Shown here in pieces: positions 7,937 through 37,878 of a DNA stretch of 64,000 nucleotides; position 1 is the first letter of the stretch, and each line of letters opens with the position of its first letter. Location: assembly GCA_030674475.1 (NCBI GenBank), contig JAUSCZ010000017.1, positions 110,755 through 174,754 on the forward strand. The letters are read 5' to 3'. The position numbers and the translations under genes were made by a program. This stretch comes from Candidatus Omnitrophota bacterium. GTDB taxonomy: Bacteria; Omnitrophota; Gorgyraeia; Gygaellales; UBA12090. The notes beneath the pieces are model-generated. The model ran no database searches and was not told the origin of the DNA. It was given only the letters and a program-made list of their open reading frames with translations.

Positions 7937-8713
7937 TTACTTCTTCCTTTTCCGAACAAATAGATTCCTAAAGAAATAAACCATAATAAGATTAAGCATT
8001 TTAATAGCGAGAATGAAGGTTTTTGACTTATGCCCGGTGACCGAAGATTTACCAACCCGCTTATAATAATTTACTGGTATCTCCACGAAAGAAAATCCGT
8101 TGAGGATGGTAAGCAGCATTAGCTCAGGGCCAAAATGCTGAGAGCCGACGTTAAATTTATCTTTTATTTTTTCTATCACCTCTTTCTTAAATAATTTATA
8201 GGTACATCCCACATCAGTCAGGCGTGATGTGTTATATAGATTTTGCATAACTTTTGCCGCGGCCACATTGCCACATCTCATAAACATTCCCATATTCGCG
8301 CCTTGCTCAATAAGCGCGATGTTCGTTCTTGTCCCCCATACCGCGTCAAAAGAATCCGAATAAACTAAAAGTTTAAGTATATCCGCTGCCTCGAAAGTCC
8401 CATCCGGTTCACATAAGACTATTAAATCACTAGTGGCCTCCTCAAAGCCGCGGCGAATAGCGTAACCATAGCCTTGCTTTCTTTCAAAAACCTGAATTGC
8501 CCTGGTTTTACCCACTTCTCTATCTGTCCCTTCCCGGGCGTTATTATTAACCACTATAATTTCATCCACATAGCCTGTAGCAAAGAAATCTTCGATAGCC
8601 TCTCTTATTGATTCTTTTTCATTATATGTCGGAAAGATTACTGAAACTCTTCTATTGTTCCACATGTCAGCCTTTCTTAACATTTTTGGCGACAATAAGA
8701 AACTGCCGCGCAA
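7937..8713 (-). CDS. GT2 glycosyltransferase, polyprenol-phosphate sugar synthase (DPM1-like).
   Basis: Motifs VSVIFPTYNEKESI, ...IVVNNNAR and CEPDG are present. The true start is probably M16 (MWNNRR) at about 8668, which removes the overlap with the upstream gene. Confidence 0.7.
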   Translation of the reverse strand: MRGSFLLSPKMLRKADMWNNRRVSVIFPTYNEKESIREAIEDFFATGYVDEIIVVNNNAREGTDREVGKTRAIQVFERKQGYGYAIRRGFEEATSDLIVLCEPDGTFEAADILKLLVYSDSFDAVWGTRTNIALIEQGANMGMFMRCGNVAAAKVMQNLYNTSRLTDVGCTYKLFKKEVIEKIKDKFNVGSQHFGPELMLLTILNGFSFVEIPVNYYKRVGKSSVTGHKSKTFILAIKMLNLIMVYFFRNLFVRKRKK

Positions 8714-10799
8714 ATGGTTTTATTGGCAATCTTAAGTATACCTTAACTAACATGGCGGCTTTAGGTAAATGCGACTTAAGAGTTGCCGGAATAAACTTAG
8801 GAAAACGATGCTCTATCTCAAACCCATTTTGCCGCAAGAAATCCGCCAAGGATATATCGGTAAAAATCTGCCTGTGTGTAGGATCTTCAAAATATTTATC
8901 ACGATAATATCTAAAATTGGGCTGAATGACAATTAGCTTCCCTCCACTTTTTAAAATACGCTTTACTTCGCCAATAACCTTATAAAAATCTTCTTCATTA
9001 AGATGTTCAAAAAAATTGCTGGCAAAAACCACATCAAGATAATCCGAGGGTAAATTAATCCTTTCGGTTGCCGACTGTTTAAATATAGTTATACCTTCTT
9101 TAGCAAGCTTGTCCATATCGTCAAATATATCAAGAGCATATTTTTCTTTAGCCCCTATAGTATTGATAAAATCGCAATAGCCGGCGCCCATATCTAAAAT
9201 TTTTGAATCATGAGGTATAAATCGATTAAGGTAACGCGCTATCACGCTCCATACCACTGCCCTATTCTTATCAAACTTAAGCCTGGTTTCAAAATAACCC
9301 TTTTGCGCTTCTTCTGTTTTATTTTTTAAGTATGAAAAGAAGACATTTTTAAGCATTACTTCTATCGGAAATATGGTAAGGTGCTTCTTAAACCTCAATC
9401 TGGCCAGGGGCCTGTACATCTTTATGAATATTCTTAGTATTTTATATGCTGTTGCACCGGAGACCAGATGAATGTCGAGCTTCTGATCTATAAAAAAGCT
9501 GGTAACATAAAGCGTATTTAACAGGCGCACCATTCTGCTGTTCAGCCAAGGCAAAGAATTAGCGCTATTATCAGGCCCAAAATCACCCCAATCTCTAAGT
9601 GTTCGCGGAGGCCTGTATCCATATTTAGCCGCCATATCAAATAACTCGGAACCGGGATACGGAGTAAACTGATTAAAAAGTGTCATATGGCAAAATGGGT
9701 TATCCTTTAGTAAGCGAAATATTAAGTCCGTGGATTTAAAAACATCCTCCTCAGTTTCCGTGGGTAAACCGGAGAAGAAATTATACGTGGGACGCAGACT
9801 TTTAAAATTACTTAGTTTCTTATTTACGGCTATCGTCTGATCAACGCCTATACCCTTACGCATTAAATCAAGCATGCGCTGCGAACCAGACTCTGCCCCT
9901 ATATGCAGATTCCGCGTCCCTATTCTTTCTAAAAGAGACAGAGTTTCATTATCCATCCTGTATAAATCATCTATACGCACACCCCTGAAATCAAATTTTA
10001 CCTGCCACTTTTTCTTATAAATCTCGTAGAGTATCTTTTTGGCGCGGCCTAAATCTATAAAAAAATCATCATCTAATATGCATATATAGCCGGGGGAAAA
10101 TTTATCAATAACCAATTCCAGGGATTTCATTGATTTATCTACCCCCGCTTTTCTCCATCTGCGCCCTGAGAGAGTCGGCGCGTAACAGAACGCGCAGTTA
10201 TGCGGACAGCCTCTACTGGTTAAAACCGAGATCACTCTTTCATCGTATCCTTCTCGATAATAGTTTGAAATATCTATTAATTCATAAGGCAAATCCGGCA
10301 AAGACTCTAGATCCACAACATCAGCGCATTCGTTATGGAAAATCTCTCCTTGATGTTTATAGCTGAGGCCTTTGATATTTCTTAGAGGTCTCTTATTAAC
10401 TATCGCATCCGTCAATTCACAAAAGGTCAATTCCCCTTCACCTTTGACTACAATATCCACTAAATCATCTCCCAGGGTTTGCTGAGGCATAATAGTCGGG
10501 TGTATACCGCCCCAGACAACCGGAGCAGAAGAATACAATTTTACTATTTTGGATACCTCAAGGGCATATTTTATCGGAGTTCCCGTCATAGCAGAAATAC
10601 CTACGCACACAGGCTCCTTCCTTAATTCATTGATTAATTTTTCCTTCCAGTTTAATTCTACTCTTTGATCAATAATCTTAACCTCATATCCTTTTTTATA
10701 AACAATTGAAGCAACATACAGTAAGCTTAAGGGCAGGTCTTTTATTATCGCGTCATATACGCCGGATTTTGGATACACCAAAACAACTCTATGTGCCAT
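8667..10799 (-). CDS. Fusion of a B12-binding (class B) radical SAM protein with a C-terminal class I SAM-methyltransferase domain.
   Basis: The N-terminal B12-binding region has VVWGGIHPT. The radical SAM cluster is SRGCPHNCAFCYAP. GAESGSQRMLD follows. The C-terminus carries ILDMGAGYCDF (MTase motif I) and FASNFFEHL. Confidence 0.75.
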   Translation of the reverse strand: MAHRVVLVYPKSGVYDAIIKDLPLSLLYVASIVYKKGYEVKIIDQRVELNWKEKLINELRKEPVCVGISAMTGTPIKYALEVSKIVKLYSSAPVVWGGIHPTIMPQQTLGDDLVDIVVKGEGELTFCELTDAIVNKRPLRNIKGLSYKHQGEIFHNECADVVDLESLPDLPYELIDISNYYREGYDERVISVLTSRGCPHNCAFCYAPTLSGRRWRKAGVDKSMKSLELVIDKFSPGYICILDDDFFIDLGRAKKILYEIYKKKWQVKFDFRGVRIDDLYRMDNETLSLLERIGTRNLHIGAESGSQRMLDLMRKGIGVDQTIAVNKKLSNFKSLRPTYNFFSGLPTETEEDVFKSTDLIFRLLKDNPFCHMTLFNQFTPYPGSELFDMAAKYGYRPPRTLRDWGDFGPDNSANSLPWLNSRMVRLLNTLYVTSFFIDQKLDIHLVSGATAYKILRIFIKMYRPLARLRFKKHLTIFPIEVMLKNVFFSYLKNKTEEAQKGYFETRLKFDKNRAVVWSVIARYLNRFIPHDSKILDMGAGYCDFINTIGAKEKYALDIFDDMDKLAKEGITIFKQSATERINLPSDYLDVVFASNFFEHLNEEDFYKVIGEVKRILKSGGKLIVIQPNFRYYRDKYFEDPTHRQIFTDISLADFLRQNGFEIEHRFPKFIPATLKSHLPKAAMLVKVYLRLPIKPFARQFLIVAKNVKKG

Positions 10800-10811
10800 T
10801 CTAAGATATCC

Positions 10812-12623
10812 TCATATGTTTGGTTCTAACGCGGGAGCAACTATTTCATATACATCTATTTGCCCTGTTGCCTGAATACACATTACTCCTTTCCGCGAAC
10901 ATTCCTGGGGCGGAAAACTTTTGACGAATTTAAGGCCTTGGTTTTGGGGAATCCTTTCCATATCCTCTCTATCTTCCACCAAGTCTGTTTTCAAATAATC
11001 ATCTTTATGCACCAGCACATACTTTACCCCCATCCATTTCAAGGTTTTGACTGTATCATATTCTGATAATTTCCTGATAGTCTGGGCCACCTTATTGGCA
11101 TAAGTTCCGGGGATTGTGCCGTTAATGATTTTCTTTTCATGCACCGTTTGGAAGAATTTAAACAGCTCGTTTGGAGAATCCGCATCCAAGGGATACTCAG
11201 CAATCACCTCAACCTGCGGTTGTTCCTTCAACCAATAGTATACCGCCGGCACTTTGGATAAATCAATCACTTTATAGGGCGGCCAATTCCAGAATTCAAA
11301 TAAAACCAATCCGCAGAACAAGGCAGTTAGCGCGAGCTTGGTTTTTTGCGACTTGAATCTTTCTAAGATAAAATTCAACCCAAAGCCTGCCAACACCGCC
11401 ACCGCCAACATTACCACAATCCCAAAACGGCAGTACGCCCGAAACATCGGCAGAATTTTATACAAAAAGAATGACGGCATATACAGCTTAAAGCCAAAGA
11501 TATTCCACCACGGCGGCTGGGAAAAAAACCAGGCCATAACTGCCAGAAACACAAAAAAGCCGATATAAAAACCTTTTTTGTCCGTGATTTGCGGTTCGCG
11601 GCTGGTGGTTAGTTTTTTTCTATTTCTACTCCATCTTCTAAACGCCACAAACGCCAGCACAAGCGGCACCCAGCCCAAATAAAGCGCGTGTTCAGTTAAG
11701 CTCATTCCATATATATCCGTACCTACAAAACCTTTGGCCAGGCCTCCTAAAAACGGATGCTCCGGAGAAGGAAGCAAATAACTTAGAGGCCTCGCGGATT
11801 GGCTGAACAAATCCTCAAAAGGCCGGCGCAAGCTCCACACCGAAACAGCTTTAGCCTGAGGAGCCAGAACTCGAGTCTTTATAAACGGCCAAAGTATTAT
11901 AGCCATTACTGATCCTGTCAAGGCCATGCTTAAGATGATACGCAAAGTCAACTTTTTACTATTCTTTTTATCCGCGATAAGACAATACATCCAGAAAAAA
12001 ACAGTAACCAAAAGCATAAAATACAGATAATAATAATCAAAAGAAGCCACCAGAAATAACGCTAAAGACAAAAATATCGTAGTCCGCAAATTCACATCTT
12101 TTTTCATCTTCAATAAGGCATAGACATACAAAGGAATCCACTGGATATGGGTTAAACCGATATGCTGCCAAGCCCGGGCAAAATGATACGGCGAGAAAGC
12201 GTATATTATGCCGGAAAAAACAGCTACTCTGAAATTCCCAGAGATAAACCGCATTAACCCATACATACACAATCCGGACAAAATGAAGGATAGTATAACT
12301 TCACTATTATAGGCAAAACACTGATTTGTAGTTATTGCCATTACTCTTTTAAAACCCGACCACAACGGATAAAGCTGATCAAGGACAGCGTAATCCTGGC
12401 CAAAAGGATAGGAGATATACCGGCAATCGCCATGATTAATATTATTTGTATGCGCGTATTTTAACCACCAAAAATACCATACAGACGGCTCATCAGTGCT
12501 CGCAAACCCGGCAATGGATTTATTTACAGTAAAAAATAAAGGATACGTCATTGCGAATGTCAACACTACAAACAATATCGTAATCGCAATCAATCCTAAA
12601 GCCTTATAATTTCTTATTTTCAT
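10812..12623 (-). CDS. Large polytopic membrane protein, putative GT-C-type glycosyltransferase (YfhO/DUF-like).
   Basis: The protein is 603 aa with multiple TM helices and a soluble C-terminal domain. It sits within the glycan locus. Family assignment is tentative. Confidence 0.4.
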   Translation of the reverse strand: MKIRNYKALGLIAITILFVVLTFAMTYPLFFTVNKSIAGFASTDEPSVWYFWWLKYAHTNNINHGDCRYISYPFGQDYAVLDQLYPLWSGFKRVMAITTNQCFAYNSEVILSFILSGLCMYGLMRFISGNFRVAVFSGIIYAFSPYHFARAWQHIGLTHIQWIPLYVYALLKMKKDVNLRTTIFLSLALFLVASFDYYYLYFMLLVTVFFWMYCLIADKKNSKKLTLRIILSMALTGSVMAIILWPFIKTRVLAPQAKAVSVWSLRRPFEDLFSQSARPLSYLLPSPEHPFLGGLAKGFVGTDIYGMSLTEHALYLGWVPLVLAFVAFRRWSRNRKKLTTSREPQITDKKGFYIGFFVFLAVMAWFFSQPPWWNIFGFKLYMPSFFLYKILPMFRAYCRFGIVVMLAVAVLAGFGLNFILERFKSQKTKLALTALFCGLVLFEFWNWPPYKVIDLSKVPAVYYWLKEQPQVEVIAEYPLDADSPNELFKFFQTVHEKKIINGTIPGTYANKVAQTIRKLSEYDTVKTLKWMGVKYVLVHKDDYLKTDLVEDREDMERIPQNQGLKFVKSFPPQECSRKGVMCIQATGQIDVYEIVAPALEPNI

Positions 12624-12624
12624 A

Positions 12625-13996
12625 TTATGTTTTTCGCGCTTGTTTTAAGACATAATACCTTAGGTAATAAATAAACAGGTTGAATTTCAGCCTTGCAATT
12701 ATAAATTTAATTTCCTGATAAATATTACGACGATCAAAATAATTCTTAATCTTAAGTAGAAAATTAGTATCAATTTTGCTGGTATTAATTGTTCGTTCAT
12801 AGATAGACCCTACGCCCTCCAAATTGTCATCATAGGTAAAAAGTCTTTATTTATGCAATAATTAAATAATTCTGTCCCGGGATAAGGACGATAAATAGTG
12901 CAAAGCGTTATATAAGGATTAAGACGTTTAACTAATTTTACAGTAGCCATTAAATCATTCTCAGTTTCCGTGGGCAATCCAATCATAAGCAAGGCGCTCA
13001 CTTTAAGCTTAAGCCTACGACAGAGATTAAACACATTGATTATTTGCTCAACAGTTTGGCCCTTATTAAGAAAGTTAAGCACTCTATCTGAGCCGCTCTC
13101 TATTCCAAATTCAACAAGCCGAAGGCCGCATTTAATCTCTGTCTTTATCACATCCTCTTTTACTAAGTTAATCCTTGAAAAATGCGACCACTTAAATTTC
13201 AGGTTATTCTTTTGTAATAAATCGCACAATTTTAGGACACGCTCTCTATTAATATCAAACTCATCGTCATCCACCTGAAAGCCATCAATATGATAGTGCT
13301 CTTTCAAATATTTCAAATTCTCAATTATTTTCTCCGCGCGTATCCCTCTCCAGTTGCCAAGGTGAACTTTAGGCACACAGCAAAAAGAACATTTATACGG
13401 GCATCCTCGGGATGTGTTTATCGTGATTACCCTGCTCGCGTAGAACTTCCTTCTTATATATTTTTCTACTTTAATTAAGTGCCACGCTGGCTGGGGAAGT
13501 TTCTCTAAATCAAAAAAAGATCTTTTAGTATATTTCAACTGCCCGTTATCTTTATATCCAATATTGTTTAAGTCTTCCAAGCGCTTTCTTTTGCTAATAG
13601 CGTAATCCAACAGCCCCGAAAACGCACTCTCTCCATCTCCGATAATAACAAAATCAACAAAGCCGTTTTTTAAAATAGAATCCGGATACAAAGTTGTATG
13701 GATGCCGCCCCATACAATTTTTATCGATAAATCAAATTCCGCACCTCCTTAGAAACAAAAATAGCATCATCTATTGAGGTGCCGGTAAGACAGCCCAATC
13801 CTACCACTCTCGGTTTTAATTTTAGAAAGACCACATCAATATTCTCAGTATCTACATTTCTGTCATAGACTGATATACGATAGCCGCGCTCTATGGCATA
13901 AGATGCAATATAAAGCAGTCCGTGAGGAATAAAAGCCGGTATTGTTTGAGCGCTTATGGGATTAATCAAAAGAGCGTCTACAGGAGCAAGCTTCAT
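12625..13996 (-). pseudogene. B12-binding radical SAM paralog disrupted by two frameshifts; three ORF fragments remain.
   Basis: Fragment 13721..13996 carries the B12-binding N-terminus. Fragment 12810..13691 carries the SRGCPYKCSFC core after a frameshift; the motif IVWGGIHTTLYPDS is in the shifted frame. Fragment 12625..12822 carries the C-terminal ...IYYLRYYV segment in a third frame. Confidence 0.6.
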
Positions 13997-14003: not shown

Positions 14004-15464
14004 TTATCTTTCTGATATTTTTAATATCCTGCAGGCATATTCATACATCCGCCATTCTATTGGGAAAATATATAAATCCAAGACCCACCTGATTCTTGCT
14101 GACAAGGTAAATACAAAAAAAGCAATCCAGTACATAGGATTCTTAAAAGGGATGGTGTATTTCAAGCTAAGGCGCTGATTAAAGGAAAAATGAGTAAATA
14201 AAGTAGCTGTCCTGATAACACTCCGGGCTCTCCCCTTTATCCAGGGAAGATTAGCTACCGTATTGTATTGATACTCTGCCCAATCCTCTAATCTGGCTGG
14301 GGGATTAAGCCCGTTTTTTAATGCTTGAGGATACAGCGGGGTGCCGGGATAAGGAGTATAAATACTCAATCCTGAATAAAAGTTTTTGTTTTTCGCGGAA
14401 AGTTTTTTGATGATGGCGAATGTCTTAATTACATCAGCATATTGTTCCCCCGGTAGACCTAACATATAATTCGCGTAAAGCATAAAATCATATTTTCCCA
14501 GAGTTGAAATTACCATTTCCATCTGCTCAGGAGAAATCATTTTATTTATCATTTTTAGTATTTCCGTAGAACCCGACTCACCTCCAAAATTAGGATTAAC
14601 AAAGCCTGACCTTTTGAGCAAATCCCAGAAATCATCGTTTAAGCGCACTGCTGAATCAAAACGCATACTGCCGCTCCACTTAATACCCAATTTCTCATCT
14701 ATTATCCTTTGGGCAATTTCTTTAGCGCGAGGTATACTGGCAAAAAGGTAATCATCGTTTGCCATAAGTATATCCGGCTTGAAAAACTGTAATATATTCT
14801 TAATCTCTAGAATAACCCTATCCACGGACATTGCCCGCCATCTTCTTCTGTGCACGGCTTTTGTATAGCAAAATCCACAATTAAAAGGGCATCCCCGGCT
14901 TGTCCCAATGCTTACAAATGACGGCTTTCTATTAAGCTCAGAATACTTCTGTAAATCTTTTAACAAATAATATGGGACGGTGGGCATTTCATTTAAATCA
15001 ATAAAATCCCTTTCGCTCGTATTGATAATTTCACCATTATTTTTAAAGGTGATGCCTGCGATATCCGCGGGGTTTTTCCCTGAGTCAAGAGCCAAGAGCA
15101 GTTGGCAGAGTGTTTCCTCTCCTTCTCCTCTTACCACATAATCTACAAATTCATTTTGCGCGGTTTCTGCCGCGGTGATAGACGCATGCACGCCTCCCCA
15201 GATAAAAGGTGATGTAACGCCCTGTTTTCTCAGAAAACCCGCGCATTCAAGCGCGCTCCTTATCTGAGGCCCGGTAAACTGCAAGGAAAAACCAAAATAA
15301 TCATACTGTTTAAAATTTATACTTTCTTTATTTTCAACTTGAAGATCGCACACGTCAGCAATAATACCTTTTTTTCGCAAATATCCAGCCACACATAAAA
15401 CAGGATAAGGCATTCTGGCAAACAAACCGCAGGGATGCGGATAAATAAGTAAAATCTTAGGCAT
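14004..15464 (-). CDS. B12-binding (class B) radical SAM protein.
   Basis: Motifs FIWGGVHAS, GTSRGCPFNCGFCYT, GGESGS and YTPYPGTPLY are present. Confidence 0.75.
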   Translation of the reverse strand: MPKILLIYPHPCGLFARMPYPVLCVAGYLRKKGIIADVCDLQVENKESINFKQYDYFGFSLQFTGPQIRSALECAGFLRKQGVTSPFIWGGVHASITAAETAQNEFVDYVVRGEGEETLCQLLLALDSGKNPADIAGITFKNNGEIINTSERDFIDLNEMPTVPYYLLKDLQKYSELNRKPSFVSIGTSRGCPFNCGFCYTKAVHRRRWRAMSVDRVILEIKNILQFFKPDILMANDDYLFASIPRAKEIAQRIIDEKLGIKWSGSMRFDSAVRLNDDFWDLLKRSGFVNPNFGGESGSTEILKMINKMISPEQMEMVISTLGKYDFMLYANYMLGLPGEQYADVIKTFAIIKKLSAKNKNFYSGLSIYTPYPGTPLYPQALKNGLNPPARLEDWAEYQYNTVANLPWIKGRARSVIRTATLFTHFSFNQRLSLKYTIPFKNPMYWIAFFVFTLSARIRWVLDLYIFPIEWRMYEYACRILKISER

Positions 15465-29555: not shown

Positions 29556-29559
29556 GGGT

Positions 29560-30427: not shown

Positions 30428-30599
30428 TCTTAATTTTGGTTTCTTTAAAGTTCTGGGTGGGTCAATTCATTCGTTGACCGCAAAGCCACTTTTTTACCCC
30501 TCCCCGCCTCCCCTTGGTAAGGGGAGGATTTCAAATAACTTACCCTCTTGAAATTCCAAAGAGCCAAAACTTCCTCGCGTTCAACATTAAGGTAACATT

Positions 30600-31529
30600 T
30601 TAACCAGCGTATAATTCAATATCTAACAGATCTAATACGCTGGCGATAGGATTCAGGATGGTTATCTGCTCGGAGCCGGCGAAGAGGAGGCCTACGGCGC
30701 GCTGTTTCATATCCAAGACTAAAGAGCCGGAGTCGCCGCCTTGAGACATATTGGTGGCGATGATTTGGTTGCGGAACAAGGCGACCTGATTGTCGTAATT
30801 AACCTTTACGGTGGCGCTGATGTCTTTGATTTTACCGGTGGTGTAGCCGGTGGTGCGGCCGGATTTCTGAATCGGCATTCCCAATTTTGCTTTAGCAACG
30901 CCTTGGGGTGAGCCGATCAACATAATCTCGGGCTTCACATCGCCGGCATTCTTAGGCCTGGCCAGGGCGGCATCTATCAAGTTGACCTCTTTGCCGAATC
31001 CAATCTCAATCCAGTTTTCTAAATAGCCAATTATGTCTTTAGGCTTCTTGCCGCCATCGTAAGGGCCGGGCTGGAGGATGGGGTCGCCCTTTTTAGCCTT
31101 ATTGGAATTGGCCAGGACGTGGTTATTGCTTAAGATAAAAACTTTTCCGCTCTTTTTGTCTTTTACCAGACAACCCAGGGTTCCGGCGGTTATCTGGTAA
31201 TGGCCGAGGGATACTCCACCTGGGGCCGGACGGAAGCGTCCGGAATTACCTTGTGGTGAGCGCGGTCGAACCACCTGGGCAACGATTTTACCAACTTCTT
31301 CCACATCGGTTTCAATACGCGCGATTTCCTGAGGGATGAGTTCTTTCTTGGCTAACTTTTTCGCGCTGAGCTTTTTCTGCACATAAATCTTCAGGCATAA
31401 TCTGCCTTGAGAAAAGCCGCCTCTGATCTTTTCGCCGATGCCCACGCCAACCACATTGGATTTGGCTAATAATTCGTCTTCGCTTTGCCTTAAGGCATTA
31501 GCTACAACTTGGTTAGTAATTTTTTCCAC
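30600..31529 (-). CDS. Chymotrypsin-fold (S1 family) serine peptidase with an N-terminal domain of about 85 aa of unknown function (pro-domain-like). It has a GTG start.
   Basis: Catalytic triad candidates are SNNHVL (His), IDAAL (Asp) and GDSGS (Ser). An RBS, AAAGAGGAG, lies 8 nt upstream of the GTG. Confidence 0.55.
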   Translation of the reverse strand: MEKITNQVVANALRQSEDELLAKSNVVGVGIGEKIRGGFSQGRLCLKIYVQKKLSAKKLAKKELIPQEIARIETDVEEVGKIVAQVVRPRSPQGNSGRFRPAPGGVSLGHYQITAGTLGCLVKDKKSGKVFILSNNHVLANSNKAKKGDPILQPGPYDGGKKPKDIIGYLENWIEIGFGKEVNLIDAALARPKNAGDVKPEIMLIGSPQGVAKAKLGMPIQKSGRTTGYTTGKIKDISATVKVNYDNQVALFRNQIIATNMSQGGDSGSLVLDMKQRAVGLLFAGSEQITILNPIASVLDLLDIELYAG

Positions 31530-31547
31530 TTGAAAATCTCCTCTTTA

Positions 31548-31650
31548 GTGCGATAAATCGCACCGCTACGCGACACGAATGATCCTATCTCTATTTTCAT
31601 GCTCATTAGTGCCCCGCCTCTGACGGGGCATGACTGTTTCATTTTATTTT
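31548..31650 (-). repeat. Family-1 intergenic element (about 100 bp) that contains the palindrome GTGCGATAAATCGCAC. Copy 1 of 5.
   Basis: It is about 85% identical to 36478-36572. The palindrome sits about 20 nt upstream of the protease start codon. Confidence 0.55.
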
Positions 31651-31728
31651 CTTTTAATGCGGGAATATTGCTTCGTCGCAAAAAACGCTCCTCGCAAAGA
31701 CACGAGATACCCTTGCTATGCTTGTTAT

Positions 31729-31992
31729 TCACAGAACTTTTGACACTACTTGGGCTTTTAATCTGCCTACTTCTTCCACGTCTGTTTCTATGCCGTTTAG
31801 CTTTTGAGGAATCAACTCATTTTTTTTCAATTTGCTTTTGGGTATCTTTTTCCGGACGTAAATTTTAATGCATTGTCTTTGGGTGGAAATACCTTTTATT
31901 ATTTTAGTGCCAATTCCCACTCCGACCACATTGGGGTTAAGAAGCAATTCTTCCTCATACTGCTCCTTAACCCTTTGAATATTCATTCTCAC
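31729..31992 (-). CDS. Stand-alone paralog of the N-terminal domain of the S1 peptidase encoded at 30600..31529.
   Basis: Its NVVGVGIG...IKIYVRKK...ELIPQ...GIETDVEEVG aligns with residues of about 25-95 of the peptidase (NVVGVGIG...LKIYVQKK...ELIPQ...IETDVEEVG). Confidence 0.45.
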   Translation of the reverse strand: MRMNIQRVKEQYEEELLLNPNVVGVGIGTKIIKGISTQRQCIKIYVRKKIPKSKLKKNELIPQKLNGIETDVEEVGRLKAQVVSKVL

Positions 31993-32034
31993 TTAAAGAT
32001 AAATTCCATCCTGGATAACTCAAAACCTTATTCA

Positions 32035-32256
32035 TCAAAGAAGCATCTTTTTATCTATCATTTTACGAAAAGGACGGCGGATATGGCCGATAAAATCATT
32101 ATAATCGTTTAAAAAATCAATAAATTTATCCAAATCAACAACGCCGTGGACTAAAAAAGGATTGTGGCGATTACCGGCCATTATTCTAAAATCCTCCCGT
32201 ATCCGCTCAGAATGAGCCATTTCCAGCAACTCTCTCTTATCTTGGTCGCTAAGCAT
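32035..32256 (-). CDS. Hypothetical small protein (73 aa counted from the internal Met MLSDQDKREL...), coupled to the upstream nucleotidyltransferase-like gene.
   Basis: The ORF-track start at 32319 overlaps the upstream gene by 71 bp. The internal Met gives an 8-bp overlap, typical of a TA-like pair. Confidence 0.3.
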   Translation of the reverse strand: MLSDQDKRELLEMAHSERIREDFRIMAGNRHNPFLVHGVVDLDKFIDFLNDYNDFIGHIRRPFRKMIDKKMLL

Positions 32257-32788
32257 AGTATTTATTCTTATATTCCTGATATTTATGTCCCAAATCAAAC
32301 AAGGTAAAATACTCCTCAAGCAACGGCCAGTCTAAATTCTTCTTATAAAGCCCAAGCAAAGATTCTATGTCAAAATATTCCTGGGAAGTCCTGGTTTCGT
32401 CATTGGCTAAGGCCTGTATTTTTAATCCGATTACATCTTCCGGCCTTAACACTTTTACTGTCCGGGAAAATATCTCTTTGTCTTGAGCCCTCTCCAACAT
32501 CTTATAAGAGATATTCCTATGCGCCAAAATAAAGTCTATTTCACCAAAAATCTTTGCCTGGCAAACGTATTGGGCTACCTCATCGCTTTTATATACACAC
32601 TGGTAACCGTGTATCCGCATAATCTTATCCACCTTTTCCAAATCGCCGCGGTGGATAATAAAATCCAAGTCAATGGTTGCCCGGTGAACTCCTAATGCCC
32701 CCAAAGCGAATCCGCCTATCAACGCCCAGCGGATATTTTCTCTGGAGAAATCCTCTTCTATCAATCTTAAGACTGCCCGAAAATCCAT
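32249..32788 (-). CDS. Nucleotidyltransferase-fold protein (AbiEii-like/DUF-type NTase).
   Basis: The motif ALIGGFALGALGVHRATIDLDFII matches the GG...R.T.DLD nucleotidyltransferase signature. Confidence 0.45.
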   Translation of the reverse strand: MDFRAVLRLIEEDFSRENIRWALIGGFALGALGVHRATIDLDFIIHRGDLEKVDKIMRIHGYQCVYKSDEVAQYVCQAKIFGEIDFILAHRNISYKMLERAQDKEIFSRTVKVLRPEDVIGLKIQALANDETRTSQEYFDIESLLGLYKKNLDWPLLEEYFTLFDLGHKYQEYKNKYYA

Positions 32789-33066
32789 TATGCGGTTCGT
32801 CTGTATTTGTAATACAAAAAGAGCGCGCTTAAAAGCGTGAGCAAGGTAACGGCATTAGCCAAAATAATGATATAATCTTTCAAATATATCCCGTATATCA
32901 TCCAAAGGCTCACCCCCAGGGAAAGCTGAATTAAGGTTACCAGGCTTATATCTTTAGCCGACTTGGTGGTATGCATCTTTACGACCTGGGGTATAAAGGC
33001 GAAGCTGGTCAGGCCAGCGGCTATCACGCCAATCAGTTTCCAGAACATTTTGTAAACCTCATTCAC
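32788..33066 (-). CDS. SemiSWEET / PQ-loop (MtN3-like) small sugar transporter.
   Basis: It is 92 aa with 3 TM helices and the PQ motif (FIPQVVKMHTTKSAKDIS). Confidence 0.5.
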   Translation of the reverse strand: MNEVYKMFWKLIGVIAAGLTSFAFIPQVVKMHTTKSAKDISLVTLIQLSLGVSLWMIYGIYLKDYIIILANAVTLLTLLSALFLYYKYRRTA

Positions 33067-33106
33067 CCCCGAGGAGCAGTAAAAACTGCACCTCGGGGGT
33101 GTTTAG
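33052..33106. repeat. Copy 2 of the 55-bp CACCCCCGAG...CTCGGGGGTG hairpin element. It overlaps the last about 12 codons of ORF 33063..34583.
   Basis: It matches 29501-29555. The hairpin encodes the C-terminal HPRGAVFTAPRG of the radical SAM ORF. Confidence 0.45.
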
Positions 33107-34583
33107 ATCTATGCCTAAAGTCAAAGATATGACCGAAAACCCTGGGAATGGCACGTAGGAAATAGTTCGCGTCAGCTAAGCTAGATATTGACCTTAAGCG
33201 GTTATAGATAAATTCCGGATTAAAGGCGATTCCGTAGAGTGAGCGCACTAAGCGCATAATTTTCTCATCTCCTATCGGATTAGTCATTACCGGCTGTTTC
33301 ATATCATATTCCTGCCAGTCTAAGGTTTTCAACCAGCCATTGGTCTTACATTCTTCAAATAAGGGCGAGCCCGGATAAGGAATCACCACTGTGGACTGCA
33401 CGGTGTAGGCATAGCCTTTTCTCAATAGATACTTTCCTAATTTTAAGGTATTTAGAGCCTCCGGATAGGTCTCCCAAGGATAGCCGAACATAATGGTAAT
33501 ATGGGGATAAAGCCCGCATTTACGCGCCGTCTTACAGGATTCAATTATATTCTCTACCTGGACATTCTTGTTTATCCTATTCAGGGTATTTTGATTGGCT
33601 GATTCTATGCCGAACAATAAAAGGCGAAAACCCGCCCTTTTCATCAGGCGATATTCATCCGCGGATAAAGCCCCGAAGCGCATATTACAGTCCAGATTTA
33701 CCTTACGGCTATAGCCCCGCTCGATCATCCCCTCACAAAAATCCCTTAACCACTCGCCGGCCGGAAAGGTGCCGGAGTCATCCATAATTTCTTTTACCGC
33801 GCATTTATCTATCAATTCTCCAATTTCATCCAGGACATTGTTTACCGAACGGCTGCGGAATTTATTATACAAGGTCGGCCAAGAACAAAAACTGCATTTT
33901 CCCCACCAACAGTCCCGGCCAGACATAATGTAGGTACCGGGAACGCGCTTGTAATTACCATTCTCATAGGCATAATTCTGCCATTTGGTCAGGTCCCGGT
34001 CAATAAAAGGGACGTTGTCTAAGTCGTGGTTTAGCTGGAACTTGCCGGTGTTTCTAACCTGTCCATCTCCGCGATAATAGATTCCAGGCTCTAATTTGGT
34101 TGATAGTTGATAGTTGATAGTTGATATCTTAGATTCGTTTAAAATATTACATAGATTTAATAATAAGAAGTCATAATCCCCTCCGGTAAGCACATAGTCA
34201 ACCTGGCTGTTCTGAAAAGACTCTTCTGATAAGGCAGTGACATGGTCACCAAACAGAACACACTTGAGATTTGAGATTTGAGATTTGAGACTGTTAATTA
34301 TCTGCCAATGCTCTTGGACTACCGGGGTTTTGGTTTCAAAGGCTACTACATCGGGCTTTTCTTTAGCGATAAATTGATAAAATTGTTCCTTAGTCCATCC
34401 TTCAGCAATGCAGTCCTTCCAAATCACCTCATAACCGGCTTGTTTTAAAAGGGTTGCCGCGCTGGCCGGGACTACCGGATAAATATAGGTGGGTTTCTTA
34501 AAATACTGAAACTGGCGGTTTTGGGATAATAAAGGAATGCCTTTGGATGTACCTAACGGCGGATATCCGATAAAAATCTTCAT
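33063..34583 (-). CDS. B12-binding (class B) radical SAM protein.
   Basis: Motifs FGDHVT, MSGRDCWWGKCSFCSW, GIESAN and IPYPGSPLF are present. Confidence 0.65.
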   Translation of the reverse strand: MKIFIGYPPLGTSKGIPLLSQNRQFQYFKKPTYIYPVVPASAATLLKQAGYEVIWKDCIAEGWTKEQFYQFIAKEKPDVVAFETKTPVVQEHWQIINSLKSQISNLKCVLFGDHVTALSEESFQNSQVDYVLTGGDYDFLLLNLCNILNESKISTINYQLSTKLEPGIYYRGDGQVRNTGKFQLNHDLDNVPFIDRDLTKWQNYAYENGNYKRVPGTYIMSGRDCWWGKCSFCSWPTLYNKFRSRSVNNVLDEIGELIDKCAVKEIMDDSGTFPAGEWLRDFCEGMIERGYSRKVNLDCNMRFGALSADEYRLMKRAGFRLLLFGIESANQNTLNRINKNVQVENIIESCKTARKCGLYPHITIMFGYPWETYPEALNTLKLGKYLLRKGYAYTVQSTVVIPYPGSPLFEECKTNGWLKTLDWQEYDMKQPVMTNPIGDEKIMRLVRSLYGIAFNPEFIYNRLRSISSLADANYFLRAIPRVFGHIFDFRHRSKHPRGAVFTAPRG

Positions 34584-34601
34584 ATAGAAATATCCTCGTA
34601 A

Positions 34602-34660
34602 GTGCGATAAATCGCACCGCTACTTTGTCTGGTGCCCTGGCAAGCCCTATTCACTGACAC
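34602..34660 (-). repeat. Family-1 element copy 2 (GTGCGATAAATCGCAC palindrome about 20 nt upstream of the radical SAM start codon).
   Basis: GTGCGATAAATCGCACCGCTAC is conserved; the internal part is divergent. Confidence 0.5.
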
Positions 34661-34664
34661 ATTA

Positions 34665-35735
34665 TCATTCTTCCTTTAATCTCCAAGAAGACAGGCCTTT
34701 TATGAAATAAATTCCGTAAACTAAATGACTAAATATTATACCCCAAAAGACCAGGAAAATCAAACGGAAGTCTTCTTTTATAGTAGGCGCCCAACTATCA
34801 AAAGAAACTCGCGCTACTCCCCCTCCCCTGGCCCCTCCCACAAGGGGAGGGGAAATTTGGAAAGAGGGTTTGCTCCGGATAACTAAAGGATTACCTTTTA
34901 TAGTAAAAACAAGTACGCTAATAAGATAAAAAGATAGTAATAAAAAATAGGGATAGGTTAAGGTGGGATTTAATAAAGAAACAACTCTGCCGAAAAATAA
35001 TCCTAAAACAAAAAAAGACGGCAGAAAATAAGTAAACTTAAATGAAGTCTCTGGGAATCTTTTTACGAAATATCCCCGATGCAAGGCGTAATTGGCAATC
35101 TGTTTTAGGTGCCCTTTAAACAGGCTGCGGCGATGATGATAGACTAAAACCCGCGGATCGTAGATGATTTTCTTTTTTAAATCCCGGACGATTTTCAGGC
35201 ATAAGAAGGTGTCTTCGCCGGGCCAGAACTTAGTATTAAAACCTCCTAACGCGAGCATTATTGATTTGCGAACCAAGAAATTGCAAGACGGATAATCATC
35301 CACAAATCTTTGCGGGCGGGGTAAGCAGCGGTAAACATACTGGCCGCTCATTAGATATGAGCTGTATACCCGGCCGCTGGCCTTCTGCATCAGGGAATCT
35401 GTTTCCGGGGTGACTGCCGGCCCGCCTACCGCTGCGATTTCAGGATTGGTAAAATGCTTTAGCGCTAAAGATAACCAGTCTTCAGCCGGATAGGCATCGT
35501 CATCGAGAAAGGCTATTATCTCACCCCTGGCCTGGGATAAAGCCAGATCTCTCTTTATGGGTGGAGTTACCACGCCGGTAGGGATAACTCTGGTTTTGGG
35601 ATAATTTAGGATTAATTCATTATCCGGCAAAACCAAAATCTCAAAATCGGGATAATCTAACCTAAGGCAGTTTTCAATGCACTCCCTAAGATTGGGATTA
35701 TCCCCTTTTACGGCGACGATAATCGAAACGGTCAT
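34665..35735 (-). CDS. GT2-family glycosyltransferase with a C-terminal membrane anchor.
   Basis: Motifs VSIIVAVKGDNPN and FLDDDA (DxD) are present. C-terminal TM helices follow. An in-frame GC-rich palindromic insert lies at 34820-34856. Confidence 0.6.
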   Translation of the reverse strand: MTVSIIVAVKGDNPNLRECIENCLRLDYPDFEILVLPDNELILNYPKTRVIPTGVVTPPIKRDLALSQARGEIIAFLDDDAYPAEDWLSLALKHFTNPEIAAVGGPAVTPETDSLMQKASGRVYSSYLMSGQYVYRCLPRPQRFVDDYPSCNFLVRKSIMLALGGFNTKFWPGEDTFLCLKIVRDLKKKIIYDPRVLVYHHRRSLFKGHLKQIANYALHRGYFVKRFPETSFKFTYFLPSFFVLGLFFGRVVSLLNPTLTYPYFLLLSFYLISVLVFTIKGNPLVIRSKPSFQISPPLVGGARGGGVARVSFDSWAPTIKEDFRLIFLVFWGIIFSHLVYGIYFIKGLSSWRLKEE

Positions 35736-36459
35736 AGTATCTTAAGATATAAGCCCTATACCAAACAGCCATAGTGTCCCGCCAGGTAATCCAGATAGAA
35801 TTCATACCTATCCTGCCATAGCGCTGAGTATCCAGCACAATCGGGGCCTCGGCAATCCGATAACCCAACTGGTGCACATTGACCAAAATCTCCAGGTCAT
35901 AACCAAAGGCCTTAACCAGAATCCGGGGAAAAACTCTTTGCAATACCTCATACTTAAATAATTTCAAGCCGGTCTGGGTGTCCCTTATGGGCAGGCCGAA
36001 GAATATCTTAATTAGAAAAAAATAGACGCCGCTGATAATTCTGCGGTCTAAGGGATAATCCAGCCGGGAATTGGGATGGCGCTTGGAACCGATTACCACA
36101 TCGGCATCATCCAAACGCATAATGTCAAAAAAAGTCTGCAGCTGCGCCGGATGCAATTCCATATCCGCGTCTAAAAATACCACATAATCCCCTGAGCACT
36201 GCCGAAAACCAACCTTGAGCGCCCGGCCCTTGCCCCGGTTAGTTTTGAGCTGTTTGACAATTATGTTCGAATGTTGCCTTGAAACCTTTAAGGCATTTTG
36301 AAAGGTATCATCACTGCTTCCGTCATCAACTACGATTAACTCATATTTACAGCCGAAATCATTAAAAACCCGGATGGTCTCATTAAGGCTTTCCGCGATA
36401 ACGCCGGCCTCGTTATAGGCCGGAATAATTACCGAAATCTTTCCTTTAATGTTTTTCAT
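35698..36459 (-). CDS. GT2 glycosyltransferase, polyprenol-phosphate sugar synthase (DPM1-like).
   Basis: Motifs ISVIIPAYNEAGVI and FLDADM are present, and the protein is about 250 aa. Confidence 0.7.
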   Translation of the reverse strand: MKNIKGKISVIIPAYNEAGVIAESLNETIRVFNDFGCKYELIVVDDGSSDDTFQNALKVSRQHSNIIVKQLKTNRGKGRALKVGFRQCSGDYVVFLDADMELHPAQLQTFFDIMRLDDADVVIGSKRHPNSRLDYPLDRRIISGVYFFLIKIFFGLPIRDTQTGLKLFKYEVLQRVFPRILVKAFGYDLEILVNVHQLGYRIAEAPIVLDTQRYGRIGMNSIWITWRDTMAVWYRAYILRYYDRFDYRRRKRG

Positions 36460-36477
36460 CCGAAAATCACCTTACAG

Positions 36478-36652
36478 GTGCGATAAATCGCACCGCTACA
36501 CGACACGGACGATTCAAACTCTATTTTCATACTCATTGGTACCGCGCCTTTGGCGGGGCATGACTGTTTCATTTGAAAATCCCCTTACCGGTGCGATAAA
36601 TCGCACCGCTACGCGGCTACCACGCCTTTGTCTGGGCATGACTGTTTCATTT
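36478..36652 (-). repeat. Family-1 elements, copies 3 and 4 in tandem (36478-36572 and 36590-36652).
   Basis: Each has GTGCGATAAATCGCACCGCTAC...GGGCATGACTGTTTCATTT. Copy 4 has an internal deletion. Confidence 0.55.
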
Positions 36653-37878
36653 TAGGCTTTTTGATATAATGCCGACCTTAGGTTTAAGCCAAACATCACA
36701 ACCGAGCCTGCCAGCATAATTCCTAAGACCCAAATGGTTGTGGTATGAAAAAGGCAAATCGCGATAATCTGCGCGAGCGCGATTATTACTAATGGCCGGA
36801 TAAAATTATACCTCTCAACCGATAACTGATACACAAATAAAACATTGCTTAAGGCGTAAAAAAGCATCGCCAAGCTAAAGAACCTCCCCAGGAGCACTAT
36901 TTCTTTAGTGGCCTGTCCGGTGAGCAGGCCGAATATTACTTCAGGAAATAAATTATATATGACCACCGCGGAAAAACTTAAGACAAAGGTATAAAACAAG
37001 CTACGTTTTAAGATTTCCTGGGAGCTGGTTTTGAGCGCGTGCAGGCCGGATACCCGCGAAAACATTACCGCGTAGATTACCCCGGGCAAAAAAAGTATAA
37101 TTTTTCCGATCATCTGGGCAATCGAATAATCCTGAACTTCAGTTAAAAAGAAATGTTTCACCAAAACCAAATCAATATTGGTAACCAGGGTGAAACATAA
37201 AGAAACCATCAAAACCGGAAAAATATACGCGTAGAGCTGTTTGGTTTCTATCTTCTCTTTTGACCTGCCCTTGATTAAGAATCTTAGCGGCCACAGGCAC
37301 AATACTATGCCTATTGCCGTGGAAAGAAGAAAACCGGTTAAGCCGGCCAAGAGCGTATCGCTTATACTTTTTATCAGGGCAACTGAAAAGAGCAGTTTTG
37401 AAAAACCGGCCACAACCCCGATTATAGCCAGCCATTTGAATTTTTCTAAGCCCTGCAAGCCCCCGGTTACTACCGAAGATAGGCAGACAAGAAAGAAGAT
37501 CAGACTTAAAATAGTAATACTTCCCAGGGAATCCAGATGTAAAAATGAAGCGATATTCCTCCTCAAAAGAACAATCAAAATAAATACAACCAGACTAAAA
37601 CAAAACGTATCCGCGGCTATTTTTCGCCAAACCGCCTTTAGGTGTTCCAGCTTTTTTCGGGCATTATAAGCGGAAACGTGCTTGGTAACCATAGTAGTAA
37701 AAGCCGCCGCGGGAACCGCGATAATAGCTAATAATGCTATCAGAGAATTTAAAGAGGCGAACTTATCTTTAGGCATCAGTCTAAGCATAGTCAATTGATA
37801 AAGCAGGTTAAAAAAGGAAGAAATGCTGGAGGCGGCAAACATAATGATGGTATTTTTGGCAAAGCTGTCTAAGCGCAT
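36652..37878 (-). CDS. Oligosaccharide flippase (Wzx/MOP-superfamily polysaccharide biosynthesis protein).
   Basis: The protein is 408 aa with about 12 TM helices and sits within the glycan locus. Confidence 0.55.
   Translation of the reverse strand: MRLDSFAKNTIIMFAASSISSFFNLLYQLTMLRLMPKDKFASLNSLIALLAIIAVPAAAFTTMVTKHVSAYNARKKLEHLKAVWRKIAADTFCFSLVVFILIVLLRRNIASFLHLDSLGSITILSLIFFLVCLSSVVTGGLQGLEKFKWLAIIGVVAGFSKLLFSVALIKSISDTLLAGLTGFLLSTAIGIVLCLWPLRFLIKGRSKEKIETKQLYAYIFPVLMVSLCFTLVTNIDLVLVKHFFLTEVQDYSIAQMIGKIILFLPGVIYAVMFSRVSGLHALKTSSQEILKRSLFYTFVLSFSAVVIYNLFPEVIFGLLTGQATKEIVLLGRFFSLAMLFYALSNVLFVYQLSVERYNFIRPLVIIALAQIIAICLFHTTTIWVLGIMLAGSVVMFGLNLRSALYQKA

Follow-up and report, generated by a model that had tools for sequence, protein, structure and literature searches.

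The window analysed here, a 64,000-nucleotide stretch from Candidatus Omnitrophota bacterium (NCBI GenBank assembly GCA_030674475.1, contig JAUSCZ010000017.1, positions 110,755 to 174,754 of the forward strand), holds a locus in which eight paralogous class-B radical S-adenosylmethionine (SAM) genes, R1 to R8, stand among genes for glycosyltransferases, membrane transferases and a putative flippase. With a confidence a little above even, we read this locus as a composite island for the assembly and modification of a cell-envelope glycan, in which the class-B enzymes would tailor sugars, for some of them most likely by C-methylation. The analysis below establishes the gene content of the island, the class-B fold of R1, the presence of two glycosyltransferases of GT-C fold and a conserved linkage between R1, a methyltransferase and a family 2 glycosyltransferase (GT2). 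Class-B radical SAM enzymes are among the largest enzyme groups with mostly unknown substrates, and their characterised sugar chemistry belongs to antibiotic pathways and hopanoid head groups; no report of such an enzyme at work in the assembly of a cell-surface glycan was found.

The locus spans approximately 5,223-37,878 on the minus strand, slightly wider than the interval 7937-37878 delimited in an earlier reading made from the DNA letters alone (the sequence-only reading). It forms a 33-kb operon-like island of about 24 co-oriented genes, bounded by tyrS on one side and a toxin-antitoxin patch on the other. Packing is tight between 5.2 and 29.4 kb, where neighbours abut or overlap and the sole gap of more than 60 nt is the R6 frameshift. 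Module C (5.2-12.6 kb) comprises a 603-residue GT-C protein, the R1-methyltransferase fusion, a DPM1/AglJ-like GT2, a PMT_2 GT-C protein and a protein with seven transmembrane helices. Module B (12.6-29.4 kb) carries R2-R7 together with a GT2, two family 4 glycosyltransferases (GT4), a methyltransferase, a SPASM-domain radical SAM enzyme, an AsnB-type amidotransferase and a short-chain dehydrogenase/reductase (SDR). Module A (32.8-37.9 kb) contains a putative flippase of the multidrug/oligosaccharidyl-lipid/polysaccharide (MOP) superfamily, an ArnC-like GT2, a membrane GT2, R8 and a SemiSWEET protein.

Eight class-B paralogs cluster within 26 kb

In eight genes or sets of open reading frames (ORFs) Pfam recognised the class-B architecture, in which a B12-binding domain (PF02310) at the N-terminus precedes the radical SAM core (PF04055), six of them intact (R1, R3, R4, R5, R7 and R8) and two frameshifted; like every gene treated here, they lie on the minus strand.

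8667-10799, minus strand: R1, class-B radical SAM enzyme with a C-terminal class I SAM methyltransferase, 710 aa (PF02310, PF04055, PF08241)
12625-13996, minus strand: R2, class-B radical SAM pseudogene, ORF pieces of 91, 293 and 65 aa in three reading frames
14004-15464, minus strand: R3, class-B radical SAM enzyme, 486 aa (PF02310, PF04055)
16448-17908, minus strand: R4, class-B radical SAM enzyme, 486 aa (PF02310, PF04055)
17917-19470, minus strand: R5, class-B radical SAM enzyme, 517 aa (PF02310, PF04055)
19467-20977, minus strand: R6, class-B radical SAM gene with one frameshift, ORFs of 297 and 169 aa, matched by tblastn in two frames
23890-25419, minus strand: R7, class-B radical SAM enzyme, 509 aa, with a hydrophobic C-terminal segment (maximum 19-residue Kyte-Doolittle hydropathy, KD19, of 2.16 at residue 452)
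33063-34583, minus strand: R8, class-B-type radical SAM enzyme (PF04055 54.6 bits; PF02310 31.9 bits, cut-off 32.1)

When all eight paralogs were searched with phmmer against every ORF of the window, no further copy appeared outside 8.6-34.6 kb, and eight paralogs in 26 kb against none in the other 38 kb is clustering, not chance. Identities between pairs of the eight range from 22 to 43%; the paralogs are ancient and do not stem from a recent amplification. PF04055 passes its cut-off in R1-R5, R7 and R8, whereas R6, being split, reaches 26.1 bits against 29.5 with its fragment. For PF02310, with a cut-off of 32.1, the scores are 44-74 bits in R1 and R3-R7 and 31.9 bits in R8, and the N-terminal fragment of R2 matches weakly. 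The three-cysteine [4Fe-4S] motif CxxxCxxC is present in R1-R7 (CPHNCAFC in R1). R8 has a Cx4Cx2C motif (CWWGKCSFC), as has its closest ortholog (CWYARCTFC; locus L058, 4859-6529); relatives of R8 further off carry the canonical CxxxCxxC.

R2 changes frame near 13,700 and near 12,822 (tblastn); R4, its closest paralog, covers it as a tblastn query over residues 1-463 across three frames. R6 changes frame near 20,085-20,110 (tblastn); the alternative frame reads ...CYSILTGAESGDEDALKI, and the frame after the break carries the canonical radical SAM motif '...GAESG...'. The independent Logan assembly of run SRR13727527 contains the same broken R2 and R6 ORFs, with the R6 contig split alike, so that the lesions are not errors of one assembler. 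Pfam, phmmer and tblastn thus bear out the eight class-B paralogs, two of them frameshifted, that the sequence-only reading had placed at these positions.

R1 has a class-B fold and shares its module with two GT-C proteins

The partners of R1 in module C are as follows.

5223-6296, minus strand: membrane protein of 357 aa, about seven predicted transmembrane helices (about seven hydrophobic segments), last gene of the locus
6302-7933, minus strand: GT-C transferase, PMT_2/ArnT-like, 543 aa, about ten transmembrane helices (PF13231 39.4 bits, cut-off 26.1)
7937-8713, minus strand: GT2a, short GT2, candidate polyprenyl-phosphate hexose synthase (PF00535)
10812-12623, minus strand: GT-C fold transferase, 603 aa, YfhO/DUF6311-related, by fold and family evidence

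The R1 protein is 100% identical to the NCBI entry 'MAG: cobalamin-dependent protein [Candidatus Omnitrophota bacterium]' (MAG, metagenome-assembled genome) and also occurs on a Logan contig of SRR13727527. An AlphaFold2 (AF2) model of its residues 1-490 had a pLDDT of 92.7. Compared by Foldseek with TsrM, OxsB, MgmA, AprD4, CysS and TokK, the model gave TM-scores of 0.63-0.75 at 17-21% identity, with E = 1.7e-22 for TsrM and a TMq of 0.74 for OxsB. The predicted structure confirmed that R1 has the class-B fold. The fold does not appear to fix its specific chemistry: the near relatives of the model include the B12-independent sugar diol-dehydratase AprD4 and the ring-contracting OxsB.

The 603-residue and 357-residue membrane proteins had no Pfam or NCBIfam match, even at E = 1. 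Relatives of the former bear PF19830 (DUF6311) or PF09586 (YfhO) and are very common in Omnitrophota, and an Asp-Glu pair after the first transmembrane helix (D44-E45) is invariant in a 40-sequence alignment of the family. Its AF2 model (pLDDT 81.9) matched GT-C proteins in all of the top 26 Protein Data Bank (PDB) hits, STT3, DPY19, PglB, ArnT, AftA and ALG12 among them, and family and model together identify the protein as the second GT-C glycosyltransferase of the locus. For GT2a the best PDB matches were DPMS (5mlz) and ArnC, and the best NCBIfam matches AglJ, dolichyl-phosphate hexose transferase, PpgS and ArnC, all under their cut-offs. Sequence searches of the PDB with the PMT_2 protein and with the flippase of module A gave nothing useful.

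The C-terminus of the 357-residue protein, KTGPIDVYEIMANPIKPE (5223-5300), contains the motif KTGPIDVYEI and is close to the C-terminal strand of the 603-residue GT-C family (10812-10890), whose C-terminal consensus is TGPIDVYEV.A.P.EP. This likeness could be the relic of a gene fusion or deletion, or a common C-terminal motif.

The R1-methyltransferase-GT2 linkage is conserved in bacteria and archaea

GTDB genome relatives were found with an alignment query, a query with the single R1 protein having returned none. There are more than 522 of them. The best 80 are without exception from MAGs, and the lineages concerned, among them Patescibacteria, Bathyarchaeota, Methanoperedens, Chloroflexota and Planctomycetota, are uncultured and for the most part anaerobic. 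Homologs that carry the methyltransferase fusion share 60-80% identity with R1; unfused homologs (40-53%) occur in Omnitrophota, Nitrospinota, a 'Deltaproteobacteria' MAG, Woesearchaeota, Pacearchaeota and others. Neighbouring genes in 160 related loci were labelled by phmmer with the window's own proteins as queries, a procedure that under-detects glycosyltransferases.

Of 16 loci in the R1 orthogroup proper, with scores of at least 440 bits, about 11 have an AglJ/DPM1-like GT2 no more than about 3 kb from the R1 ortholog, mostly directly downstream of it. Among these loci are ones from Omnitrophota, a 'Deltaproteobacteria' MAG and Woesearchaeota, so that both bacteria and DPANN archaea are represented. 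The methyltransferase either belongs to the R1 protein or is encoded next to it, and in most cases a gene for a polytopic membrane protein comes next: the gene after the GT2 encodes a PMT_2 protein in locus L002, a 13-helix membrane protein in L003 and an 8-helix membrane protein with TPR repeats in L004 and L005. L002 has its GT-C gene at the same place as our 6302-7933 gene, followed by a homolog of the 357-residue protein. Two further R1 orthologs stand amid genes for a GT9 heptosyltransferase, DegT, a GmhA-like SIS protein, YfhO, AsnB, a SPASM radical SAM enzyme and Polysacc_synt/MurJ; judged by its gene families, the GT9/DegT/GmhA-like/MurJ neighbourhood is a lipopolysaccharide (LPS)/O-antigen-like context. 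The comparison of synteny in related loci also recovered the gene order R8-GT2c-GT2d-flippase of module A, in loci L110 and L111. In locus L040 the R3 ortholog is directly followed by a GT-C ortholog with no R2 between, and the R2 pseudogene is therefore an extra copy in the present genome.

When B12-radical-SAM ORFs of at least 60 bits were counted in 50 genome loci of at least 15 kb, at least two were present in 25 loci and at least three in 19, with a maximum of seven. Arrays of several B12-radical-SAM paralogs are recurrent in uncultured microbes. At a different threshold (E < 1e-5), arrays of 4-9 paralog-matching ORFs in about 20 kb were seen in the unrelated MAGs L006 (Woesearchaeota), L077, L079, L072, L084 and L063. 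One is a DPANN archaeon, and Clostridia (a MAG from goat colon), Bacteroidetes and Anaerolinea are represented as well; some of these arrays sit beside DegT, GT or SPASM genes.

Modules B and A supply further glycan genes

Besides the radical SAM paralogs, modules B and A and the cargo between them hold the following.

15457-16455, minus strand: extended SDR of the epimerase/dehydratase/3-beta-HSD type (PF01370 124 bits)
21009-22745, minus strand: AsnB-type glutamine amidotransferase (PF00733 300 bits; TIGR01536 499.8 bits, cut-off 267)
22746-23909, minus strand: GT4a glycosyltransferase (PF00534)
25421-26533, minus strand: SPASM-domain radical SAM enzyme (PF04055, PF13186; no NCBIfam family at cut-off)
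26545-27375, minus strand: class I SAM methyltransferase (PF08241 73 bits)
27381-28532, minus strand: GT4b glycosyltransferase (PF00534, PF13439)
28508-29428, minus strand: GT2b glycosyltransferase (PF00535 97 bits)
29560-32788, minus strand: accessory cargo of about 3.2 kb that splits the locus, with a HepT/MNT toxin-antitoxin pair, a trypsin-like protein and an AbiEii/NTP_transf_5 fragment
32788-33066, minus strand: SemiSWEET/PQ-loop protein, 92 aa (PF03083 43.7 bits, PF04193 38.3 bits)
34665-35735, minus strand: GT2c, GT2 with three C-terminal transmembrane helices (PF00535, PF13632)
35698-36459, minus strand: GT2d, short ArnC/DPMS/PpgS-like GT2 (PF00535 114 bits)
36652-37878, minus strand: putative MOP-superfamily (Wzx/PST-like) flippase, 408 aa, about 11 transmembrane helices, by a weak MatE match and BLASTP

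Pfam, NCBIfam and fold comparison together upheld the SPASM enzyme, two methyltransferases (26545-27375 and the R1 fusion domain), the SDR, AsnB, four GT2 and two GT4 enzymes and the GT-C proteins listed by the sequence-only reading. The SDR is closest in NCBIfam to HpnA (127 bits, cut-off 367). GT2d matches ArnC and DPMS in the PDB at E of about 1e-16, and its best NCBIfam families, ArnC and PpgS, stay below their cut-offs. For the two DPM1-like synthases proposed earlier, DPMS, ArnC, AglJ and PpgS are closest to both short GT2s, but all scores lie below equivalog cut-offs. The 408-residue protein scores 19.8 bits with Pfam MatE, which is sub-cut-off, and 23 bits with NCBIfam MATE; it aligns by BLASTP with the Polysacc_synt/MurJ protein of locus L087 at E = 8e-13, an alignment that would place it among the MOP-superfamily flippases. 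The Wzx of the sequence-only reading thus has a weak MatE match in Pfam and this alignment on its side.

The SemiSWEET gene lies directly downstream of R8, its start overlapping the R8 stop by 4 nt; no SemiSWEET was found beside R8 orthologs in the other loci. That it might translocate a sugar or lipid-linked sugar is speculative. In the cargo, the trypsin-like protein has 309 aa, an 87-aa ORF (31729-31992) duplicates its N-terminus, and the AbiEii/NTP_transf_5 gene is truncated.

We then considered the type of pathway. No Wzy, chain-length regulator (Wzz, polysaccharide co-polymerase or PCP), outer-membrane polysaccharide exporter (OPX) or priming phosphoglycosyltransferase was found with Pfam among minus-strand ORFs of at least 100 aa at 1-47.6 kb and most of those beyond. 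The 'Wzx-dependent pathway' of the sequence-only reading is accordingly not supported as stated: a probable MOP flippase is there, but the ORFs scanned include neither Wzy nor a chain-length regulator nor a priming phosphoglycosyltransferase. Two DPM1/ArnC-like GT2s and two GT-C proteins point instead to polyprenyl-phosphate-sugar/GT-C modification modules; two branches leading from a GT2 to a GT-C enzyme, beside a set of cytoplasmic GT2 and GT4 enzymes, would suit the gene set better than classical Wzx/Wzy. No small flippase of the GtrA, ArnEF or GtcA type was found, the sole candidates being the SemiSWEET, the seven-helix protein and the MOP flippase.

Proposed pathway

In the pathway that we propose, cytoplasmic GT2 and GT4 enzymes would build a lipid-linked oligosaccharide, and the short GT2s would put single sugars on polyprenyl phosphate. 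The R1-methyltransferase would most likely act on the polyprenyl-phosphate-hexose made by the adjacent GT2, or on its nucleotide precursor; ArnD and DprE1/E2 likewise tailor lipid-linked sugars ahead of GT-C transfer. For radical SAM enzymes that act on sugars or on glycolipid head groups, AprD4, HpnJ and Cds are precedents (PMC13459092). The loaded sugar would then be flipped, with the SemiSWEET, the seven-helix protein and the MOP protein as candidate flippases, and the GT-C enzymes would pass it to a periplasmic acceptor (glycan, lipid or protein), as in the Gtr, Arn, CsbB-YfhO and Ppm1-Pmt systems. R3, R4, R5, R7, R8 and the SPASM enzyme would tailor the oligosaccharide built by the GT2 and GT4 enzymes at unactivated carbons, alongside amidation (AsnB), redox or epimerisation steps (SDR) and O- or N-methylation. 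For at least some paralogs the chemistry would most likely be C-methylation, which is favoured because of the enzyme class and the co-located methyltransferases; dehydration and ring contraction are live alternatives. The chemistry is inferred throughout; C-methylation is the most likely single one, and for any given paralog its likelihood falls short of one half.

A number of observations weigh against this reading. None of the eight paralogs reached a named NCBIfam family (best 80-163 bits against cut-offs of 251-750). The class-B families tested by curated cut-off were BchE, HpnJ, HpnR, PhpK, MgmA/MJ_0865, ApyD, BzaD, TsrM-type, ladderane TIGR04072 and TIGR04295, and the best matches, all sub-cut-off, were to BchE, HpnJ, PhpK, MJ_1487 and ApyD. 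With such scores the paralogs do not cluster with BchE or HemN, a grouping that would have spoken against a glycan role, nor do they receive a positive assignment. The nearest solved sequences are all remote: AprD4 (for R4), MgmA (9ccb), OxsB, TsrM, CysS and TokK. Half of the 50 loci of at least 15 kb carry a single radical SAM gene, and a GT was detected in 16 of the 50, a lower bound under the crude labelling; the glycan link, read from gene neighbourhoods, is firm for close R1 orthologs only and not for the whole family. The locus has no priming transferase, polymerase or nucleotide-sugar pathway from which acceptor and sugars could be read. AprD4 has the same domain layout without using B12; to our knowledge, no universal sequence motif marks base-off, His-off binding, and cobalamin binding is unreadable from sequence. 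Cobalamin binding and methyl transfer by the paralogs are predictions from their class. With two paralogs out of eight broken and mobile cargo in its midst, the locus is perhaps non-functional in part.

Alternative explanations

The sugars might be tailored mostly by non-methylating chemistry, that is, AprD4-like 1,2-diol dehydration or deoxygenation, HpnJ/Cds/OxsB-like ring contraction to cyclitol-like units, epimerisation or C-C coupling, yielding a deoxy or carbocyclic glycan and not a C-methylated one. We consider this rather unlikely, characterised class-B enzymes being mostly methylases and the two separate class I methyltransferase domains suggesting a methylation theme. On its side, AprD4 (6fd2) is the solved sequence closest to R4 (E = 1.3e-22), the R1 model has both OxsB and AprD4 among its best fold matches, and the SDR between R3 and R4 recalls AprD3, the partner of AprD4. 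HpnJ, the top NCBIfam match of R2, R3 and R8, is, like the calditol synthase Cds, proposed to ring-contract sugar head groups. These similarities are remote, at 17-21% identity and with scores far under the family cut-offs. The 'heavily C-methylated' product of the sequence-only reading had been derived from enzyme class alone; it stays plausible, but the nearest solved relatives include the non-methylating AprD4 dehydratase and OxsB, a ring-contraction enzyme, and HpnJ is among the best families. It is improbable that the radical SAM enzymes act instead on a lipid, be it the polyprenol carrier, a lipid that is branched or spans the membrane, or an anchor of hopanoid type, to which the GTs would add no more than the head group of a modified glycolipid. 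Many lipid-modifying radical SAM enzymes are known (PMC13459092), the paralogs match HpnJ, HpnR and the ladderane-associated TIGR04072 in part, the SDR is closest to HpnA, OleD and SdmB, and the C-terminal segments are moderately hydrophobic (maximum KD19 of 1.3-1.6 in R3-R6), clearly so in R7. The family scores, however, lie 3-6 fold below the cut-offs, the neighbourhoods of R1 orthologs, with their GT9, DegT and GmhA-like genes, resemble LPS/O-antigen loci, and the locus has no squalene-hopene cyclase, polyprenyl synthase or fatty-acid/ether-lipid genes, PlsC (41003) belonging to the housekeeping flank.

Two further readings concern the locus as a whole. It could be a decaying hypervariable island whose paralog array is a relic of shuffling, largely non-functional in this genome, an account that we hold very improbable. 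Frameshifts in two of the eight paralogs, toxin-antitoxin and protease fragments inserted at 29.5-32.8 kb and the methyltransferase fragment at 2505-2933 fit such decay, and the order of modules varies among relatives. The GC content is 0.34-0.39 at 6-14 kb against 0.42-0.47 elsewhere (flanks 0.45-0.47), which suggests that module C and the R2 pseudogene are of another origin than the rest of the locus. Hypervariable regions with surface-glycan and toxin-antitoxin genes have been reported in Omnitrophota, and the state of the locus, partly decayed and interrupted by toxin-antitoxin cargo, fits them. Yet none of the glycosyltransferases is broken, nor are six of the paralogs, for which conserved orthologs exist elsewhere at 50-80% identity, and overlapping start and stop codons have been kept. 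Scarcely credible is a proteusin-like cluster for a ribosomally synthesised and post-translationally modified peptide (RiPP) with overlooked precursors, in which a peptide would be methylated or epimerised by the radical SAM enzymes and later glycosylated. Tailoring in RiPP pathways is typically the work of class-B and SPASM radical SAM enzymes, ApyD and rSAM_ocin_1 are among the partial NCBIfam matches, and two similar small ORFs (31502-31732 and 36456-36572) could be taken for precursors. Both, however, lie inside repeats of repetitive extragenic palindromic (REP)-like type with a perfect hairpin; their peptides are about 66% identical against 82% for the DNA, and a third copy is open in another frame. 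Because genes abut or overlap from 5.2 to 29.4 kb, with no gap above 60 nt but the R6 frameshift, there is no room for a precursor gene there; nor did a leader-type domain, a protease/transporter pair or a gene for a RiPP recognition element come to light. The gap analysis and the nature of the repeated small ORFs agree with the sequence-only reading that no precursor peptide is visible, and the predicted gene functions support a glycan or glycoconjugate locus, not a RiPP locus.

Within the envelope-glycan reading, it is tempting to speculate that R1-type enzymes perform a new step in envelope biosynthesis, the radical modification of a polyprenyl-phosphate monosaccharide between the AglJ/DPM1-like GT2 and the GT-C enzyme, probably by C-methylation plus O- or N-methylation, and that the arrays generate a combinatorial code of surface sugars. 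We put this forward tentatively, as possible but not probable. If it is true, ultra-small and often host-attached Omnitrophota, Patescibacteria and DPANN archaea would display a fast-evolving combinatorial code of branched or C-methyl sugars. The broader reading, if true, would imply a new class of envelope sugars in uncultured anaerobes and a surface chemistry tied to cobalamin availability.

Repeats and flanking regions

The small ORFs at 31.5 and 36.5 kb were rejected as RiPP precursors and are regarded as spurious ORFs of REP-like DNA repeats, the tandem site of which is given here.

36447-36652, strand not assigned: REP-like repeats in tandem, intergenic between the flippase and GT2d genes, hairpin GGTGCGATAAATCGCACC

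The family has four direct copies and one inverted; further copies with the hairpin GGTGCGATAAATCGCACC lie at 31517-31644 and 34578-34626, and the inverted copy at 54603-54632, outside the locus. A second motif of the family is ...GCCCCGCCAAAGGCG... A separate 53-nt repeat (29502-29554 and 33053-33105, 91% identical) contains the GC-rich hairpin CACCCCCGAG...CTCGGGGGTG; one copy stands just past the hepT stop and the other overlaps the R8 3' end and the SemiSWEET start. It looks like a terminator-like or REP-like element. A 90-nt element occurs twice in inverted orientation (5106-5195 and 52303-52392, 94% complementary): one copy coincides with the downstream end of the glycan locus, and the other is within a type IV pilus cluster. 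It has a strong 13-bp hairpin (fold z-score -2.7) and no Rfam match, and is perhaps similar to a miniature inverted-repeat transposable element.

Upstream of the island (>38 kb) lie housekeeping genes, namely tyrS, an S1 protein gene, plsC (41003), phosphoglucomutase, rpe, nadD, proA/B, obg and RNase G, with the pilus cluster beyond them. The cluster includes the PilQ secretin (50261-51910), PilM (53578-54510) and PilX_N (54802-55818) genes and a type IV pilin gene (57028-57501, minus strand) with the prepilin motif GFTLVEIMIVV at its N-terminus, upstream of which is a c-di-GMP-I riboswitch (RF01051; 57796-57885, minus strand; 62 bits against a gathering score of 35). An Rfam scan of the locus gave no RNA family, and the 64-kb window has no tRNA gene. 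In the downstream flank (<5.1 kb) lies a second patch of defence or toxin-antitoxin-like genes (1178-5075), which code for an HTH-XRE protein together with an AbiEii toxin, for a nucleotidyltransferase of the MNT toxin-antitoxin type and for an ATPase (AAA_14/DUF4143). The same flank holds a fragment (2505-2933) with the C-terminal 142 aa of a class I methyltransferase, perhaps left over from a glycan locus that once reached further.

Comparison with known systems

The sequence-only reading had seen no characterised counterpart to the locus. The literature covered, outside which many subscription papers lie, likewise has no account of envelope glycan loci with arrays of class-B radical SAM genes; the locus is not unique, however, as arrays of 3-7 paralogs recur in MAGs of many phyla. 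Wzx/Wzy O-antigen and capsule loci are alike in their GT2, GT4, AsnB-type amidotransferase and SDR genes, with a putative MOP flippase on the side of the locus, and differ in having Wzy, Wzz/PCP, OPX and a priming phosphoglycosyltransferase gene, none of which was found among the ORFs scanned in the window. Closer are the three-component periplasmic glycosylation systems GtrA/B/C, ArnC/ArnE-F/ArnT with ArnD, CsbB-GtcA-YfhO and Ppm1-Pmt: twice in the locus a short GT2 that resembles polyprenyl-phosphate glycosyltransferases accompanies a GT-C gene. They differ in their flippases, the locus being without one of the GtrA, ArnE/F or GtcA type, and in that the locus has a class-B radical SAM-methyltransferase fusion as putative tailoring enzyme, for which no description was found in any such system.

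HpnJ (hopanoid cyclitol ether) and Cds offer the proposed parallel of a radical SAM enzyme that remodels a lipid-attached sugar head group. HpnJ is the best NCBIfam match of R2, R3 and R8, yet at 133-144 bits against a cut-off of 577.6 the paralogs are not members of that family, and the locus has no hopanoid or glycerol dialkyl glycerol tetraether (GDGT) genes. Members of TIGR04295 ('B12_rSAM_oligo') are, like those of other families without a characterised member, B12-domain radical SAM enzymes; the paralogs score 35-57 bits against a cut-off of 400 and do not belong to it. TIGR04295 is a family of a conserved cassette with carbohydrate-related genes. The class-B-type enzymes of aminoglycoside pathways such as AprD4 share the combination of a Rossmann/B12-type domain and a radical SAM barrel, and AprD4 leads the solved sequences for R4 and ranks among the top fold matches for R1, but at an identity of just 17-21%. 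GenK and GenD1 have the same two-domain layout and, like AprD4, act on sugars at unactivated carbons. The aminoglycoside enzymes belong to secondary-metabolite clusters, whereas those of the window would serve an envelope glycan locus with GT-C proteins and a flippase. Tailoring of sugars by class-B radical SAM enzymes is thus known as such, and what would be new here, as far as gene content can tell, is the process, surface glycan assembly, and the cassette of radical SAM enzyme, methyltransferase, GT2 and GT-C, which is common to bacteria and DPANN archaea and offers a concrete, testable entry point.

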